Source: Octopus vulgaris (lineage: Eukaryota). Taken from it: a stretch of 64,000 nucleotides of DNA. The notes beneath the pieces are model-generated. The model searched no databases, was not told where the DNA came from, and saw only the letters and a list, made by a program, of their open reading frames with translations. The stretch is taken from positions 128,774,001 through 128,838,000 of the forward strand of contig OX597814.1 in the NCBI GenBank assembly GCA_951406725.2. Reading direction: 5' to 3'. Both the position numbers and the translations under genes were made by a program. Below are positions 4,016-38,354 of this stretch, piece after piece (the first letter of the stretch is position 1; each line of letters opens with the position of its first letter).

Positions 4016-4597
4016 TTCTTTCTACCATAGGTACAAGGCCTGAAAATTTGAGGGAGAGGGCTAGGCGATAAAACTGATCCCAGTGCTCAACTGGTAGTTA
4101 TTCTATTGAGCCCGAAAGGATGAAAGGAAAAGTCAACCTCGAGGGATCTTAAACTCAGAACGTAAAGAACTGGAAGAAATACCTATTTCTTTATTACCCA
4201 CAAGGGGCTAAACACAGAAGGGACAAACAAGGACGGACAAACGGATTAAGTCGATTACATCGACCCCAGTGCGTAACTGGTACTTTTTTAATCAACCCCA
4301 AAAAGATGAAAGGCAAAGTCGACCTCGGCGGAATTTGAACTCAGAACGTAGCGGCAGACGAAAAACCGATTTCTTTACTACCCACAAGGGACTAAACACA
4401 GAGGGGACAAACAAGGACAGACAAACGGATTAAGTCGATTACATCGACCCCAGTGCGTAACTGGTACTTATTTGATCGACCCTGAAAGGATGAAAGGCAA
4501 AGTCGACCTCGGCGGAATTTGAACTCAGAACGTAGAGGCAGACGAAATACTGCTAAGCATTTCGCCCGGCGTGCTAACGTTTCTGCCAGCGATCACC
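4016..4597 (-). mobile_element. SINE family B trimer (two Tx1-tailed units plus one older-tailed unit)
   Basis: Units 4369-4597, 4185-4368 and 4016-4184; only the first carries the full head; the first two end in TAAAGAAAT. Confidence 0.9.
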
Positions 4598-4611
4598 TTG
4601 TTTCCCAATAT

Positions 4612-4791
4612 CGGTTTCAAGTTTTGGCTCAAGGCAAGAAGTTCGGGTGAGGGATTAAGTCGATTTCGTCAACCCTAGTTCTCATTCAACTGGTACTTAT
4701 TTTATGGACCCCGAAAGGACAAAAGGTAAAGTCGGCCTCGGCGGAATTTGAACTCATAACATAAAGACGGACGATTCTGCCAGGTCGCTGC
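4612..4791 (-). mobile_element. SINE family B
   Basis: Meta-like core; flanked by CTTGT(T/G)TCCCAATAT duplication. Confidence 0.85.
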
Positions 4792-5179
4792 CTTGTGTCC
4801 CAATATTGTTATCATTAATAACTTGTCATTCACAGACAAACTAACAACATTTCGCACGGCATAAGCTTCACTGTTCGCTCTTCATCATTCAGCCACCAAC
4901 GAATTAGATACTGCAGGTTTTATCTCGTTTGTTTTCACGGTTGATTACTTGGTTCAATGTCTGCTCTAATGCGATCAGTAATCTCCAAACCCCACAAAAT
5001 CTATTTTTTAGCTTTTATTTTTATGAAATTTTGCTTTGCTTTGTTAGCAAATTATTTGAATATTAATTCTTCAGCTTAGCTCTAAGCAGCATATCATATG
5101 TTTACTGGGCGAGCTATAAATGCTATTAAAACCGCAATCTGTTGAACGTAAAGCAAAATACGATAGAAATATATGAGTT

Positions 5180-5390: not shown

Positions 5391-7180
5391 ACAGCAGAAA
5401 TACATTCACACATGAAAAGGAACAGAATTTTTCTTTCTGATATTTGTGACTGTAAAAGTTATTATCGTTAAATATATCTATTCTTTAATTCTTTCAATGG
5501 TTCAGTCGTAGGACTACGGACATACTGGAATACCACCTTAATTTTCTTTCAATTTTGTTGCTGCTTTATGGCTGGAATTTGGTTTATAACTAAGTTTGTA
5601 GCAACTGATTTTCCCTGAGTGTATCTTTTAATAGTTGGCTGGTCCGAGATCATTGTTAGGAGCTTATTCAATATTTCATCAGAGGCCCCTTTCATATTTC
5701 TGATGCCAAGAATTTTGGAGAAATATACTTGATCGTATCGACCTAAGAACTTGACTAGTATTCTATGGTCATGGCTAGAACGTCTTTGATAGTAAGCCTG
5801 TTTTATTGTTTGATGATAGTTGACTTCAGTGTCGTAACTGGACTACTCTAAACACATCCCTGCTACGCTATGAGTTGACTTGGAGTTAAACAACAACAGC
5901 ATTTCAGACTTCCAGTCTATGCACTACAAGACACTATCTGTTCTGTCTTCTTGTACTGTCTTAGCTATGCACTTAATATTACACCATCTGTGTTTACTTT
6001 TCAAGAGAATAACAGACCCGAGTCAAGGAAAATTGACATCAATAGACTAAACCAATGTTTCTCATAGAATGGGCAAAATCCGATGCATGAAAGGGGCCGT
6101 GAGGATTGAAAATGGAGTAGACAAATTGTCATTCTTTTATTTTTTAAATTCTTTTACTCGTTGCAGTCACTGGACTGTGGCCATGCTGGGGCAACACATT
6201 GAAATGATTTAATTGGACAAATCGACTCAAGTAATTATTTTTTTGAAAAGTTTATTCTATTGGTCTCTTTTGCCGAATTGCTAGTTGCATGAACGTAAAC
6301 AAACCAATACCAGTTATCAAGTAGTGTGAGGACCAGCACACACACGCACACACACACACTCTCTCTCTCTCTCTCACACACGCCCACACACACACACACA
6401 CATTATCTTCGCAATTATAGTACATGCATTGCAATGTGATTTGATAGGGGTTATAGTTAGGCGCAGTACGTCTGAAATAGTAAAAAAGGGGTAACATAAA
6501 ACTGAATTCTGGATTTCAGCAGCCCGTTTTAGAGGGCATACAGTTTCGATCAACTATGTCATCTCTGTACACAATCATTATCATCATCACCATCATAATC
6601 ATCACCGTCGACATCAGCATCATCGTCATCATTATCGTTATCCTTCCTCTTCTCTTCACCATAGTCACATCAACATCGCCACCACTTCCGTCGCCACCAT
6701 CCTCGCCGAATTTAGAACATAAAAACGGACGAAATGCCGCTAAGCATATTGTGAGGCGTGCTAACAATTCTGCCAGATCCGCCGCCTTAATAATAACGAC
6801 AATAATTTCGGGTCTTACTCCGCAGTTATTTAACAATTTTGACAGAATCAACTGAACATCATGCTCACAAGGGATAATGTTGCTTAAGAGGTCAACCATA
6901 TCAGATAATGAATTTTCCCTTCAGTATTCAGTAACATCACGGGTTTTCCTAATCTCACTTTATCTGACTTAAAAAGAAAAGAGAAACGAAAGACAAGCGC
7001 AAAACAAATCGAAAGAAGATTTTTTCTTCAGTTGGAAACTACTTTTTTTTAAATTCGGAATGAAGAAGCAATTACTTGACATATTTTGATCTACTAAAAT
7101 GCTTTTTGTATTAAAAGTTTCGGTCCATTCTTTAAGAATTTCTGTAAAAAAATAATTACGTCTGTCACACTACAATTCTT

Positions 7181-7464
7181 ATTTCTTTATTGCCCACAAG
7201 AGGGGACAAACAAGGACAGACAAACGGATTAAGTCAATTACATCGACCCCAGTGTGTAACTGCTACTTAATTTATCGACCCCGAAAGGATGAAAGGTAAA
7301 GTCGACCTCGGCGGAATTTGAACTCAGAACATAACGGCAGACGAAATACCGATAAGCATTTAAAATATCTTACTCAAGAACACAATACAGCCTGGTCCAA
7401 GAATCGAACTCATTGCCTCATGATTGTATGCCCGACGCTCTAGCCACTGAGCAATGCGCTTTAC
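7181..7464 (-). mobile_element. Chimeric SINE: family C-type tRNA head fused to family B body with Tx1-type tail
   Basis: 16-bp perfect TSD GTCACACTACAATTCT at 7164-7179 and 7465-7480; head with A/B boxes at ~7362-7464; body and tail 7181-7361. Confidence 0.75.
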
Positions 7465-7732
7465 GTCACACTACAATTCTACTTTTAAAGATGATTTTAT
7501 TTATTTTAGTGTTTTCTACTTTACACAATGGCGGTGGATTGGCAGAATTGTAGAACGTCGGAGATCTTTTTTTTTCTGCTTCAATATGTCCTCAGCTCAA
7601 ATCCCACTGAAATCATCTTTGATCTTCATCCCTCCGAGATCGATTAAATGAACTACCAGTCAAGCACTGCGGTTAATTTCTTTGAGACCTTTTGCCGATT
7701 CAAAAAAAAAATCAATATTTTATACGACCTTT

Positions 7733-8146
7733 GGTGGCGAGCTGGCAGAAACGTTAGTACTCCGGGCGAAATGCGTAGCCGTATTTCGTCTGCCGTTACG
7801 TTCTGAGTTCAAATTCCGCCGAGGTCGACTTTGCCTTTCATCCTTTCGGAGTCGATTAAATAAGTACCAGTTACGCACTGGGGTCGATGTAATCGACTTA
7901 AACCGTTTGTCTGCCCTTGTTTGTCCACTCTATGTTTAGCCTCTTGTGGGTAGTAAAGAAACAAGCATTTCGTCTGCCGCTACGTTCTGAGTTCAAATTC
8001 CGCCGAGGTCGACTTTGCCTTTCATCTTTTTGGGGTTGATTAAATAAGTACCAGTTACGCACTGGGGTCGATGTAATCGACTTAATCCATTTGTCTGTCC
8101 TTGTTTCTCCCCTCTGTGTTTAGCCCCTTGTGGGTAGTAAAGAAAT
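7733..8146 (+). mobile_element. SINE family B dimer with Tx1-type tails
   Basis: Units 7733-7962 and 7963-8146, each ending TTTAGCC(C/T)CTTGTGGGTAGTAAAGAAA(C/T). Confidence 0.9.
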
Positions 8147-8179
8147 AGGTGGCGAGCTGGCAAAATCGTCAGCACGCCG

Positions 8180-9822
8180 TGTTTGATGCTTCGTGTTTTT
8201 TTCCGTCTGTATAAGTTGAATGGTTAAAGGCTATATTTGTTTTTGTTTAATTGTTTTGGATTTTTGCTGTTCGCAGCGGTGGTGTTTTTGAAAAATGGCA
8301 AGGAGGAACAGGTATTCTGACCTCAGTGAGTCGGACCTGTCGACTTCGGAGGATGACTGGCGAGAGCGGTCAACAGGCTAGATATGGCGTTAGAAGGAAA
8401 AATGAATTACGCAGGAGTAATGAAGGCAACAAGCAAAAAGGTTGACCGGCAAAAGGTTACCAGACGGCCAAAAATGGGTGAAGAAGGTAGGCGATGACGT
8501 GGAGTTGTCTCCGCCAAGGAAAACAATAAAAAATTTTGAAAGGAATACCATAACGTACAAGGTGTTTGCAACAGATAAAAGAAAAATGGAAACAGTTGGA
8601 ATAGAAACCGTGGAGGAGGCATTACGAACAACAGCAGAAAAAATAATATTCCTGACAAGAGGGAATAAGTTCGGTACTGTCGTTGTACAGTTCGAATCAG
8701 AGGCAGTCGCTAGGAGGATGGCAGCAAGGACTATCAAGACAGAAAAAGTAGACCTTCTGCCCTCGTATCCGGGAAGGAAGACGTCCAGAATCAGGGTGGA
8801 AGGAATCCCACCCGACATAGAAGCTGAATGCGTAGTGGCAGCCATCGTCATTGATAATGAGGATAAGGTGAACATACTAAAGGCCACAATTACGGATGAA
8901 GGCAACTGGAAAGGAGGATATTAGAGATGAGCGTCCAAGTGGAAACTGAAGTTCTGGAACGCTTAACAGAAGTAATCACGATGGGAGACATAAGTCTACG
9001 AGTATGGGTGGAGGGCAGAGCTCCTCGATGTTTTAAATGTGCCCTGAAAGGCCACATAAGAGCTAACTGCCCTCCACCAGCGAAGGAACCAAAGAAGGAG
9101 CCCGTGGAAGATATAGAAGGTACCCGGGATCCGCAAGAGGAACAGAGGGAGGCAGAGGAGGAAAAGAGGGAAGATCAAGCAGAATGGAAAACCAATGGTA
9201 AAAGGAAGAAGAGAAAAAGAAAGAAGGCAAGTTATAATGAACCTCAATCCACCCCAGCACCACCCACGCCCCTCTTCGTCCCACCCTTCCCCTGCAGACA
9301 CAAAACCTACCCACTCCCCACCAACAAGAAAAAAAAAAGCAGGCACACAGAACAACTTACAAAATTCCCCTCCCGTAATGCCCGTTATAGGTTTATTGGA
9401 CAAGGAAGACGAGGACCTGCTGGAAATATTGAGGGACTCGGGTGAAGTTGAATTGCTGGATAGTTGGGATGAGGAGGGTTGTATGGAGGTGTTTTTAACG
9501 GGGAAACAAGTGCAAGAACTTGAAAATGAACTGAACAATGTTTTTGCGTTAATAAGAAAGGATATAGCCCCGGACTGGAAAAAAACTAGAAAAACGGTAC
9601 GGGGTGAAAATATGGGATTATGTATTGTTCGGAAGACTTTAAGAAGAGGACATAGGAAAAGAGGACAGGTAAGCGATGTTATCTGATGGGGCAGGTAACA
9701 TCACTTTCATCTTTCATTTTCACCCTCTCATTTTTATCATACGTTTGTTTTTGTATTTTTATTGTCCCCAATGTGTTTTTTGTTTCTTATCTTCGTCAGC
9801 CCGTCCTGGGTAATAAAGAAAT
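8180..9822 (+). mobile_element. ORF1-only non-LTR retroelement (HAL1-like, L1/Tx1 group)
   Basis: ~1.65 kb; one frameshifted gag-like ORF, short T-rich 3' UTR ending GGGTAATAAAGAAAT, 18-bp TSD (8162-8179 and 9824-9841, 2 mismatches); no endonuclease or RT coding sequence. Confidence 0.8.
8295..9686 (+). pseudogene. L1/Tx1-type ORF1 (gag-like; putative RRM region plus CCHC zinc knuckle), frameshifted
   Basis: Pieces 8442-8924, 8927-9445 and 9195-9686 join by frameshifts; knuckle CFKCALKGHIRANC at 9029-9070; MNYAGV motif; ..RIRVEGIPPDI.. and ..LRVWVEGRAPRC.. resemble L1/Tx1 ORF1p. Confidence 0.75.
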
Positions 9823-11119
9823 TAGAATCGTTAGCACGCCGGGCAAAATGCCTAACGCTATTTCGTCCGTCTTTCTGCTACGAGTTCAAACTCTGTCGAG
9901 GTCGACTTAGCTTTTCATCCTTTTCGCGTTGCTAAAATAAGTACCAGTTGAATACAGGGATCGATATAATCGACTTACCTCTTCCCCTAGTACAAAAAAA
10001 TTCAAACCAATATTTTATACGGTCTTTTACCTAAGCGGGCCGTGTTCGATTCTCGGAATGGAAACGCTACAATTTTAGGCGCAGGAATGGCATGACATGG
10101 CTGTGATTAATCACTTGATTTCTGGTTTAGTTCCACTACACTGCACTTTGAGCGCGTACATTTTGCTCTAGCCCCGGGCTGATTAAGGCCTTGCCAGTGA
10201 ATTTCATTGACAGGAACTTTGGAAGCTCGTCGTGTGTGTGTGTGTGTGTGTTACGCGTGTGTGTCCCCGTTTCACCGCTTGACATCCTCCGTTGGGTTGT
10301 TTGCATCCCCGTAATCCAGCGGTTTAGCAAAAGTCATTGATAAAATAAGCACAAGATTTTTTTTTAAAATAAGCACTAGGGTTGATATATTATACATTAT
10401 TCTTTTATTCGTTTATACGTTCCAGCCCTAAAGCTGTGCCCATGCTGGAGCACCAAAATTTGAAAAAAAAAATGTTTTGTTTTTAGGCGGTAAGTTACGA
10501 TTTGATGGCAATTTAGTTGCTATTTCTAATGTGTAGGGCGTCTCTGAAGTGGCTCGATAATTGGCTCAAGTCTTTATTTCCACAACTGTGTCATAAAGAC
10601 GATGTTAACCTTGTTAGCTCACTCTTCTATGATTATTTAACCATCAACGTTTGGTTCTCTTTTATTATCCAGTTCATTTTAATAGACATTTCGTCGTCTG
10701 CGTGTTTGTCTGTCTGTCTATCTCACTGTCTCTACCCCTCTCTCCCTTTTCTCTCTCAAATTTCCCTCTCTCCAACACATTCTCACCGCCTTTTATTATT
10801 ATTATTATTATTATTTTGCTTTGTTCTTCGTCGGTAATAAAATCCGGTGTTTGTATGCTTATGTCAGTGTGAACATAAAATGGAAAGCCAAAAAAAAAAA
10901 AAAATCCGTTATTTTCAATCAAACGCAAAAGCGTGTTTGCGAATGCCGGGAGAAACGAGACTTCGGAAACTGAAGATAACTTTGAAAATTACCAGGCCGA
11001 TTCCACCACCACCACCACCATCACTATCACCATCAGCTAACACGAACTTTCACCCCTCCCCTACTATGTACAACTTGGGGGAGTTTGCAGTGCTCTAATT
11101 ATTCCGACGTTTACCACCA

Positions 11120-21398: not shown

Positions 21399-22830
21399 TT
21401 CTTATCGGTTTCAGCTCAGAGCTGTGACCATACTGAAGCACCGCCGTTTTCCTACACTGTTATTATTGAGAGCCTCCTCTGATATATGGCATTTGGTGAA
21501 TAAGGAAGCTTGATGTCGCTACTCTCATTTTCACCTTCTGCCGTGCGGTAGATTCATCTGGGGCTCTCGACAAGAAGAGATCCAGTTTTGATTTGAAAAC
21601 ACCTACATTCACTTTCTGTAGGTACCCTCAGGCTCTTTGGGAGAATATTAAAAAGCTGTGGGCTCCTGAAACCCAGGCTGTTGCAGTAACTGGTCCTGAA
21701 GCGCGACGGCATTGCTGGGATCTTTGGCACTGTGCAGTGGAGACCCGTTCTGGCATTTGTGTAGCTTTCGATGCCCAAATTTGGCACTATCTCTTCTTGG
21801 ACCTTCCAGATGTATACTACTGCATATCTCTCCCACCTTCGCTTCAGGGAGTATAGTCTTAGCTGCTTCAACCTTTCCCAGTAGCTGAGCTGTTGCAATG
21901 AAATGATCTTCTTTGCGAAGCTTCGCTGAATTGCTTTAAGGTCCGCTGTTTTCCAACGGGGTGATAAAGACGCTTTTGAACTGGTCATTCAGTACCTCAC
22001 TGATCCTGGTTGGGTTATCTGTGCGGGAGCCATCCTTTTGGAAGAGGGGTCCTAATTTGCAGCGAACTGAGGCTGTTTCTTTAGCATTATGAAAGTAGGC
22101 CTTTGGGTTTGACTTGATATTTTTTATAACCCAGGCTTCTTTGTCTGCTCTCTCTTTCACAAAGGATTGTTACATGCTTTTTTCAATCTCCATCAGTGTT
22201 GTTTTCAGGCGGGACCTTTCACTACTTTTGGTATGTTGGTTGAAGCGATTTGCAACCTTCGTCCGTCGTCTCGTGAGGATCTTCCTCCCACTTGGAATCT
22301 TGTTCCTTTTTCTGTTGGTCTTGTACTCTGGGACATTTTTCTAGCATAAGGTTTGCATAACAGACATGAAATATTCTAGTTTCATGCTAATGTCTGGTAT
22401 GGAGAGACATTTCGGCCAGTCCTGTCATAGGATCTCTTTTTAAATCGATTTCCAGTCTGCTTTGTGGAAGTTCAGATTGGAGAGATTTTTGGTGCTTCCT
22501 TTAGGCTGTATGTCTCTGGTAACTTCTGGTCCATAAATAGACAGCTCTATTATATTGTGTTCCGAAACTAGAGTCGGCGTCACTTTCACATTATGGACGA
22601 TGTCCATATTGTTCGTGAAGCAGAGATCCAATATGTTATTCACCCTAGTTGGTCTGAGTACAACTTGCTCCATGTATAGGACAGTGGTGAGATTGAGCAG
22701 GGACTCCACCTGTACTTGTTTGCAATGAGTCATTCTTGAGAACATGAGGCCTTCGAGCTATTTGACGTTGGGGAAGTTGAAATCACCCATAAGAAACACG
22801 CTCACTTGATGTTCCATTTTCATGAGGATT
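21399..22830 (-). mobile_element. CR1-clade LINE remnant: APE endonuclease end plus ORF2 C-terminus, RT core deleted
   Basis: VFLMGDFNFPNV, PTRVNNILDLCFTN and SEHNII (APE); IKSNPKAYF; LSYWERLKQLRLYSL..ERYAVVYIWK..QLFNILPKSLR (CR1 C-terminus); 3' tail 21399-21445. Confidence 0.85.
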
Positions 22831-29557: not shown

Positions 29558-30533
29558 ACCACCTAATAAACACAAAGAAGAAGAAGAAGATGAAGAAGAA
29601 ACAACAAAAGCTATAAAACAAATGAAATCCAAACTAAAAATAGAACAGCAACGAGCCATGATAAAACGATGGCAAGAAAAACCCCTTCATGGTAAATACT
29701 GCACTAAACTAAACGCAAAAGAAATAGACAAAGAAAAATCCCAGCAATGGTTGAGAAGCTCAGGACTCAAAGCAGAAACAGAGGGATTTTTAATTGCAGC
29801 ACAAGACCAAAGCCTCCCCACCAGAAATTACCAAAAACATGTAATGAAAAGAAATATTACAAGTAACTGCAGAATATGTGGAGATGGACAAGAAACAATA
29901 AATCATATTATCTCTAGCTGCCCAGTCCTGGCTAAGAAGGAATATATTCACAGACATGACAGAGTTGGAACCTACATACATTGGAAGCTATGCCAACATT
30001 ATGGAATAACAACAGAAAAAAGATGGTATAGGCACACACCAGAAAAGGTCACAGAAAACGAGAAAGCAACCATACTCTGGGATATGCCGATACACACAGA
30101 TAGAGAAATTAAGGCCAACAGACCAGATATAATTGTCAGAGATCATGAAGAAAAAAATGCTTTCTAATTGATGTATCAATACCGGCAGATGACAACGTGT
30201 CTCTAAAAGAAATGGAGAAACTCTCAAAATACAAAGACCTGGAAATAGAGATAACTAGAATGTGGAACCTGAAAACAGAAACAATTCCTATCATAGTAGG
30301 TGCATTAGGCATGATAAAAAAATATTCAGACAAATACATAACAAAAACACCAGGACTTACAAACACATATAACATACAGAAAATTGCACTACTAGGCACT
30401 GCACACATCCTATGCAGAACACTTTCCATACAATAACCATCAGAGCATCACAACAAATCACAGCACATACCCAAGGCACACAGAGCTGCGCTCGGTAGTG
30501 AAGTAAAAGCACGCTATAAAAATAAAACTACTG
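29558..30533 (+). mobile_element. R4/Dong-clade non-LTR retrotransposon, 5'-truncated, inserted in (AAT)n
   Basis: CCHC finger CRICGDGQETINHIISSC, RHD motif, restriction-like endonuclease RPDIIVRD..IDVSIP..K..KY, C-terminal KIALLGTAHIL; (AAT)n on both sides (29505-29556, 30534-30555). Confidence 0.9.
29622..30436 (+). pseudogene. Dong/R4 ORF C-terminal part (zinc finger plus RLE endonuclease), one frameshift
   Basis: ORFs 29622-30167 and 30197-30436 join through a slip in the A-run near 30151-30157. Confidence 0.85.
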
Positions 30534-37641: not shown

Positions 37642-38354
37642 ACTTGGTGCAATGGGGAGCTGTGTTACCGAGGCGCCCTACCAGTTCGGGATAAGCTCAC
37701 TAGACACGGTTATCCTGGCTCATCGGCCTGTCCAAGATGCGGACGGGACGAGGAAACTGTCCTGCACGCTATTGTTCAGTGTCCGGGTGTGTCAGAAGTG
37801 AGGGCTTATGCAGAACACCTGTTGTCAGATGTGAGGAGAGTACAGCTATCGTCGGAGTCAATTTTAAAAACTGACCCACCGGATTTCCGTACGGAAGACG
37901 GTAAGAATTATTTTCTGGTGGTTGTAGCAATCGCGAAAGAGGTGATTTGGAAGTCGAGAGTGAAAAGACTAAAGACAGGTAGCTTCGTCTCCGGCCTCGC
38001 GTTGGTTAATGTCTTCACCTTTTACCTGAAAAGGAAAGTGGGGCTAGAGAGGAGATGCCTGTCAGCGAGAATGTACAAAGATAGATGGATACGTGTACCA
38101 CGAATGTTGGGTATGAAAGCCTCTACGCGAACACGCAATAAAGGTGACCAGAAGGTGTCGGTAGAGAAGCAGGGCTCGTGGGATCGGAGCCTGTTTTAAT
38201 ACCTCACTTCTGTTTTTATTGTTTTGTAATTGTCTTTTGTTTATCATTCGATTTTCATATTTGCTCATTTAATTTTATAACCATCCGTATGTGTCTGACC
38301 CCAATTAGGCTGTATTGTCCCCTCTGTATGTCCCCTTGTGAGAAATAAAGAAAT
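37642..38354 (+). mobile_element. Tx1/L1-type LINE, 5'-truncated ORF2 end plus 3' UTR
   Basis: ELCYRGALPVRDKLTRHG..ACPRCGRDEETVLHAIVQCP (zf-RVT CCHC) runs in frame into ORF 37789-38199 (AKEVIWKSR); ends AATAAAGAAAT; 15-bp TSD AGCTTTT(C/A)TGAGTTC at 37627-37641 and 38356-38370. Confidence 0.85.

Follow-up and report, generated by a model that had tools for sequence, protein, structure and literature searches.

Several non-autonomous, Tx1-like families in the Octopus vulgaris genome show a real but partial preference for a single base in the head of a SINE. This base, which we call site A, lies in an A-box-like motif of the SINE head, before AGAAWCGTTAGCAC. We think it probable, though far from certain, that an ORF1-only family prefers this base by borrowing the endonuclease and reverse transcriptase of a Tx1-like LINE. 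The observations come from a 64,000-nucleotide stretch of contig OX597814.1 (the window) and from searches of the genome (2.8 Gb, 227 contigs).

The initial annotation had placed a nested stack of SINEs and a single-gene element at 7713..10028 of the window. The stack is real, and its units, insert, host and repeats, together with a second array nearby, were located as follows.

4079..4590, minus strand: second array of the same SINE, in which a head and two units abut an older SINE
7713..7732, plus strand: outer target-site duplication, left copy, 18/20 identical to 10008-10027
7733..7962, plus strand: SINE unit 1, made up of head, body and LINE-like tail
7963..8147, plus strand: SINE unit 2, without a head; period 184 nt
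8148..8179, plus strand: host SINE head piece with the A-box-like motif
8162-8179, plus strand: inner repeat, 5´ copy, within the SINE head piece and bearing the element-type C
8180-9822 (to 9823), plus strand: ORF1-only (HAL1-like) insert of ~1.64 kb with a LINE-like tail and no ORF2
9824..10014, plus strand: older host SINE, resuming at the insertion base, whose tail is of another type
9824-9841, plus strand: inner repeat, 3´ copy, at the start of the resumed host body
10008..10027, plus strand: outer target-site duplication, right copy, 18/20 identical to 7713-7732

The two SINE units with a LINE-like tail span 7733-8146 and abut the start of the host head, and the first 7 bases of the outer repeat overlap the tail of the host SINE. 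As first described, the three inserts share one orientation; their tails end in TAAAGAAAC, TAAAGAAAT and TAAAGAAAT, with TAAAGAAA(T/C) as the ending common to all three. The array at 4079..4590 joins its older SINE ~35 nt downstream of the A-box site, at a position we call site B, and this head-plus-two-unit array on an older SINE forms a further SINE-beside-SINE stack at 4079-4800 of the window (minus strand). An old SINE at 7550-7719 (plus strand) stops right at the outer duplication, and open frames at 21554-22745 (minus strand) and 29622-30167 (plus strand) resemble pieces of other LINE families. We take the SINE of the window to resemble the octopus CORE-type SINEs. The A- and B-box-like motifs in its head were identified by eye; neither ARAGORN nor Rfam gave a tRNA match to the head, and no snRNA match was found within 7000-10800.

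The insert is a HAL1-like, ORF1-only relative of Tx1/L1-type LINEs, in which two coding features were located.

8295..9686, plus strand: frameshifted ORF1 remnant, its protein 72-73% identical to that of the open frame in copy L004
9029..9070, plus strand: CCHC zinc knuckle, Pfam zf-CCHC E 0.025, below the cut-off

Five near-full-length copies match the insert at 84-100%, copy L004 keeps an open ORF1 frame of 393 codons, and the CCHC knuckle was matched in 9 of 10 aligned relatives, with a best E of 6e-6. The ORF1 protein of the L004 frame is 27-35% identical to those of the full-length LINEs L165 and L166, 37% to that of L338 and 46% to that of a deleted LINE, L181, and tblastn gave no match to endonuclease or reverse transcriptase in the insert at E<=1. 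Because its ORF1 aligns to LINE ORF1s and there is no trace of ORF2, we class the insert as HAL1-like. The initial annotation called the element "gag-only"; its gene is a LINE ORF1 and not a retroviral gag, a reading rejected on the LINE ORF1 match, the LINE-like tail and the target duplication. Part of ORF1 is predicted to have an alpha/beta fold (pLDDT 72), and its look-alikes by ESM are ZCCHC3 RBD/RRM families (0.90). Foldseek matches to RRMs were weak (E 0.03-0.08), no ORF1 homolog was found at E<=0.001 among 4,911 candidates, and a PDB sequence search returned nothing beyond weak knuckle matches. ORF1 was kept under purifying selection, with a dN/dS of 0.12-0.23 between families and 0.23-0.47 within them, and part of this signal may predate the loss of ORF2.

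The 3´ end also ties the insert to LINEs. Its last ~25 nt are common to LINEs, the end shared with L338 matches at 21/24 nt in a short alignment (E 0.007), and the tail of SINE unit 2 matches the LINE 3´ end of L338 at 35/39 positions. Every copy of the element ends in AAGAAAT plus one base, without the poly(A) tail that is a feature of HAL1 in the strict, L1-derived sense. A hairpin in the tail was not significant (z -0.9, -0.9 and +0.8). At L164:1064-4085, a LINE endonuclease-reverse transcriptase fragment comes immediately after a deleted copy of the element and has the same orientation, as the result of nested insertion or recombination.

Where the element inserts was assessed from 131 candidate copies, of which 40 were scored and the best 30 loci taken; leaving out L051, which has no 3´ end, and L053-L060, which belong to other families, gave 21 copies. 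Among the matches listed, eight of the 21 3´ ends (38%) are at site A, ten are at TG-type sites (five strictly YGTGTG), two are at AGA outside a SINE and one lies elsewhere. At the other end of the element, 14 of 15 distinct 5´ ends come after a SINE head piece. As a null, 24 site-bearing heads in twenty arbitrarily placed 10-kb stretches (200 kb) correspond to ~6e-5 per oriented position. Copies at random sites had been named as the outcome that would speak against targeting; what we found is 7 of 20 non-query copies at site A, with a P of ~1e-25 against the ~6e-5 expected per insertion. Insertion could still be random, with copies surviving in harmless SINEs, and SINE bodies do cover ~2% of oriented positions. 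Even so, 7 of 20 copies within any SINE position has a P of ~8e-8, and all of them are at one base. This clustering at a single base refutes random insertion with survival, and the probability we leave to it is negligible.

The proposed targeting of SINE heads is thus upheld for site A, which is enriched, but the preference is partial, with about half of the copies at TG-type sites. Families with over 20% of flanks in one repeat are considered target-specific in PMC4494074, and on this measure the ORF1-only element is target-specific; the reverse transcriptase-bearing LINEs sampled, with 0/30 and 0/20 at the SINE site, are not. Its tree is star-like, and site-A copies are not separated from TG copies.

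The repeat around the insert (8162-8179 and 9824-9841, 16/18 matching) had been read as an 18-bp target-site duplication. The repeat is there, but its 5´ copy is mostly element-borne. SINE heads read GTTAGCA in 44/44 cases and the C variant in 0/44, and the 5´ copy beside the element reads GTCAGCA in 9 of 13 5´-intact copies (excluding L160, which was selected for that C); the 3´ copies keep the T. Because this C is absent from the 44 heads and present in 9/13 elements, the 5´ inner repeat is not a pure target duplication. We suggest that the element RNA would start inside the SINE head and that its cDNA would pair with the upstream target end, so that the 5´ copy would often bear the element's own C.

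A 5´ head piece whose C is common by descent would also be expected if a single SINE carrying an ORF1 insert had spread as a compound, without any targeting. Whole compounds flanked by outer duplications fit such hitchhiking, as do two 5´-truncated site-A copies without an upstream head within ~9 kb. The hosts, however, do not share one origin. Seven host bodies (an eighth was omitted because of a deletion) carry three tail types (3, 3 and 1), are scattered among 27 background SINEs in a tree, no more similar than random SINEs, and are 75% alike pairwise versus 84% for their elements. Since the hosts are of three tail types, the element did not hitchhike with them as one unit. Moreover, a host-private change in L008 is present in both repeat copies, L006 carries the head piece although its 3´ end lies in a TG repeat, and no compound-flanking duplication was found in nine truncated or interrupted cases. 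In L121, two different ORF1-only families are stacked at site A with a duplication between them. The insertions of the element were separate events in SINEs already in place, which belong to three tail types; spread of one compound is largely refuted, and we consider it very unlikely.

Site A is not used by this element alone. A tail-plus-site pattern has 78 genomic matches (control 0), and the 30 of these that were viewed are mostly LINE-tailed SINEs, the window element and families Y and Z. We found at site A family Y (L098, L099), family Z, which is unclassified (L093, L096, L115), the ORF1-only family X (L121), and family W, a LINE that has lost most of its ORF2 (L181, L237). Three further ORF1-bearing non-autonomous families, an unclassified one and a SINE tail variant therefore use the site, and the two kinds of passenger proposed at the outset, ORF1-only and SINE, are both found there.

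For the SINE itself, a tail pattern that leaves out ends with A at place 13 has 95,146 genomic matches, with 2,328 tails at site A versus ~6 expected. The start of the head, where the SINE pair of the window sits and which had been taken for a preferred site, has 5 tails versus ~6 expected in the same test; with matches at chance level, we rejected it as a target. The first 100 SINE tail matches, which all fall within the initial 3 Mb of C1, were tallied by hand: at ~57 the tail meets an older or the following unit at site B, 3 are at site A, and ~40 are solo. Variants shared between the two sides of SINE-into-SINE duplications number 11/40 versus 5.3 when shuffled (30 of 5000), with 6 of 34 pairs dropped, and an excess is also seen outside those duplications (7/42 versus 2.9); the SINE-in-SINE junctions may be either separate insertions or products of multi-unit transcripts. 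A related ORF1-only copy, L053 (= L020), lies at site B, at the junction of 184-nt SINE arrays.

As for the LINE that could drive these insertions, the window holds one fragment.

37642..38354, plus strand: 3´ fragment of a LINE of Tx1/L1 type, matching the C-terminus of L165 ORF2 at 61%

The initial annotation had pointed to this LINE as the driver. As sampled, it was rejected in that role, with 0 of the 30 nearest ends at site A (40 of 1,783 candidates scored); L074, one of its relatives, ends near a SINE head start. The ORF2 of L165 has Exo_endo_phos, RVT_1 and zf-RVT domains above the cut-off, an architecture common to the L1 clade too. A reverse transcriptase search with the partner LINEs gave no match named Tx1, the best named match being a Xenopus reverse transcriptase (27%, E 4e-33). 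We call these LINEs Tx1-like, on the strength of their architecture and behavior.

Four search routes, with limited sampling, found no autonomous LINE at site A. A search with the 3´ end of family W gave 30 loci, two of them at site A and both belonging to W; of the 20 reverse transcriptase-bearing copies among these loci, none is at site A. Two junction patterns likewise gave none, in 30 of 33 matches viewed and in 17/17. Among the 12 LINE copies nearest to the W 3´ end, the flank starts with AGAA in 7/12 versus 0/18 farther relatives, although this AGAA may repeat the tail in several copies and a duplication confirms 1/7 by script (L253). The full-length LINE L338, which has a 5´ region common to W, is flanked by a duplication at a GTGTG-type site. 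Because its AGAA and GTGTG classes are those of the ORF1-only element, the AGAA-preferring, L338-type LINE subfamily is a candidate driver; other LINE families may exist as drivers.

LINEs and ORF1-only copies also recur in other repeats. The 3´ flanks of L069, L071, L073 and L085 and of L019, L029 and L060, which include LINEs and an ORF1-only family, fall at two places in Mariner-like transposase sequence, as which we presumptively read the WVPHxL and YSPDIAP motifs in the flank translations; this recurrence is reminiscent of Tx1-Mar. Further groups of LINE or ORF1-only copies, which may include segmental duplicates, each have a common flank in some repeat: L077, L081, L083, L090 and L166; L022-L024, L028, L307, L308, L324 and L325; L063, L064 and L066; and L236, L245 and L250. 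At L332, head-to-tail LINE and ORF1-only copies face each other within 10 kb, and one of the LINEs stops immediately short of another element's 5´ end.

In the mechanism that we favor, the borrowed enzyme of a Tx1-like LINE subfamily would prefer (TGG)C|AGAAWCG, the reverse transcriptase would bind the common tail and prime from a bottom-strand nick at site A, and a second nick ~19 nt downstream would yield the duplication. TG-type sites, which received about half of the copies, would be due to a second specificity, belonging to another driver or to the same one. The SINE pair of the window would have come later, to a motif starting with GGT, and its position at the head start would be due to chance. 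Insertions outside SINE heads provide evidence on the part played by the enzyme. Of the solo SINE insertions, 28 unselected ones with a duplication carry the motif in both copies, with T at +3 in 25/28, A at +4 in 23/28 and a preceding G in 0/28. At AGA-type sites outside SINE heads, a C precedes in 7/11 by hand tally, two of them with TGGC like the head, and in 7/10 when computed; one of the 11 sites could itself be a head that has decayed. The bases upstream of the nick lie beyond what RNA pairing can determine, which argues that the enzyme contributes to target choice. The five-base motif alone explains 1-2% of matches, and a longer recognition sequence is therefore assumed. Counting against an endonuclease-led view, no reverse transcriptase-bearing LINE copy was found at site A, L338 sits at a GTGTG-type site and AGAA is possibly a tail repeat, two truncated site-A copies lack the head, and the tree leaves site-A and TG copies unsplit.

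Targets could also be inherited through RNA, a possibility that we hold only tentatively. The endonuclease would then be loose, source copies would be transcribed together with both flanks, and RNA reading through into the source flank would pair with the nicked strand; the progeny of a source located in a SINE head or a TG repeat would go to similar sites, and each lineage would keep as its home the promoter of a SINE, a TG repeat or a Mariner gene. Such memory can operate jointly with endonuclease-led targeting. Solo SINEs with the CAA tail variant start at AGA in 4/15 cases versus 1/38 for the TAG variant, and at GG in 3/15 versus 25/38, and the base that follows the tail at the junction comes from the RNA. 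That the target class tracks the tail variant, together with this RNA-derived base, fits either several drivers or read-through pairing. One LINE subfamily has several unrelated flank motifs, some of them paired, which also favors memory; cotranscription with target genes can strengthen targeting (PMC4494074), and pairing of the primer over 4-10 nt has been shown to matter for L1 (PMC3649969). Against memory stand the non-random bases upstream of the nick, the presence at one base of five or more families, which would need repeated rare founders or 3´-end swapping, and the fact that a correlation of tail variant with target is also expected with several drivers. If RNA memory is true, a SINE with a captured LINE tail became both passenger and target of itself.

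A third way to reach a SINE promoter is by tethering through Pol III factors, as in Dictyostelium TRE5 and yeast Ty3. ORF1 or ORF2 would bind such factors on the SINE promoter, and the nick would fall at a fixed place. Both preferred SINE sites are in or just after the A-box-like motif and ORF1 is conserved across the non-autonomous families, as tethering would predict, but the non-SINE sites have the same sequence motif, the head start has no enrichment, and close relatives are found repeatedly in other repeats and in the transposase sequence of Mariner. We regard tethering as improbable and retain the borrowed, sequence-preferring endonuclease as the more plausible basis of the preference for site A.

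With these observations, the targets known for Tx1-type elements extend to a SINE promoter motif, and target preference is documented in ORF1-only families. They explain the nested SINE arrays of a SINE-rich genome, in which there are ~95,000 exact tail matches and more than half of 100 sampled join another SINE. A host SINE hit in its A box would probably fall silent. With its many related families that differ in target, this genome also lends itself to asking which of the two, endonuclease or RNA pairing, determines target choice, a question that bears on retrotransposon-based gene insertion. Our literature search found no description of a SINE-targeting Tx1 or of this system; Repbase and Dfam were outside the search, and a prior description is possible.

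Several known systems resemble this one in part. In R1 and R2, target sequence at the RNA end aids integration; these are autonomous elements of other clades, with rDNA as the target. Their cotranscription with the target is cited in PMC4494074. Dada elements take the A box of Pol III (tRNA) genes as their insertion site (PMC8869645), but they are DNA transposons in real tRNA genes, and the word SINE is absent from the main text of that paper. Closer in kind are the APE-type LINEs with transposable element or microsatellite targets, among which Tx1L of Xenopus inserts into Tx1D, Keno targets U2, and Kibi and Koshi target microsatellites (PMC4494074). The TG-type sites described here parallel the microsatellite class of Kibi and Koshi, and none of these four is described as SINE-targeting in PMC4494074. 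HAL1 (half-L1), a non-autonomous LINE derivative with several origins, encodes only ORF1 (PMC5753468). The octopus element differs from HAL1 in its Tx1-like origin, its tail, which is not poly(A), and its single-base target preference. We know of no such preference for HAL1.

The closest parallel is found in crocodilians, where Tx1-Mar LINEs and their SINEU passengers share sites in a Mariner (Kojima 2015, PMC4494074), with a preference of 13 to 90%. As here, Tx1-type machinery prefers fixed sites in another mobile element, its non-autonomous passengers go to the same target, a duplication lies between tandem insertions, and some copies have target-derived 5´ extensions (PMC4494074). An autonomous LINE occupies the site in that system, whereas none was found at site A among the copies sampled. 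In crocodilians the elements insert into a Mariner DNA transposon, with passengers that carry poly(A) and have heads of the U1/U2 kind (PMC4494074); in the octopus, the target is the A-box-like motif of a SINE, and the passengers, which have no poly(A), are ORF1-only families and the SINE itself.
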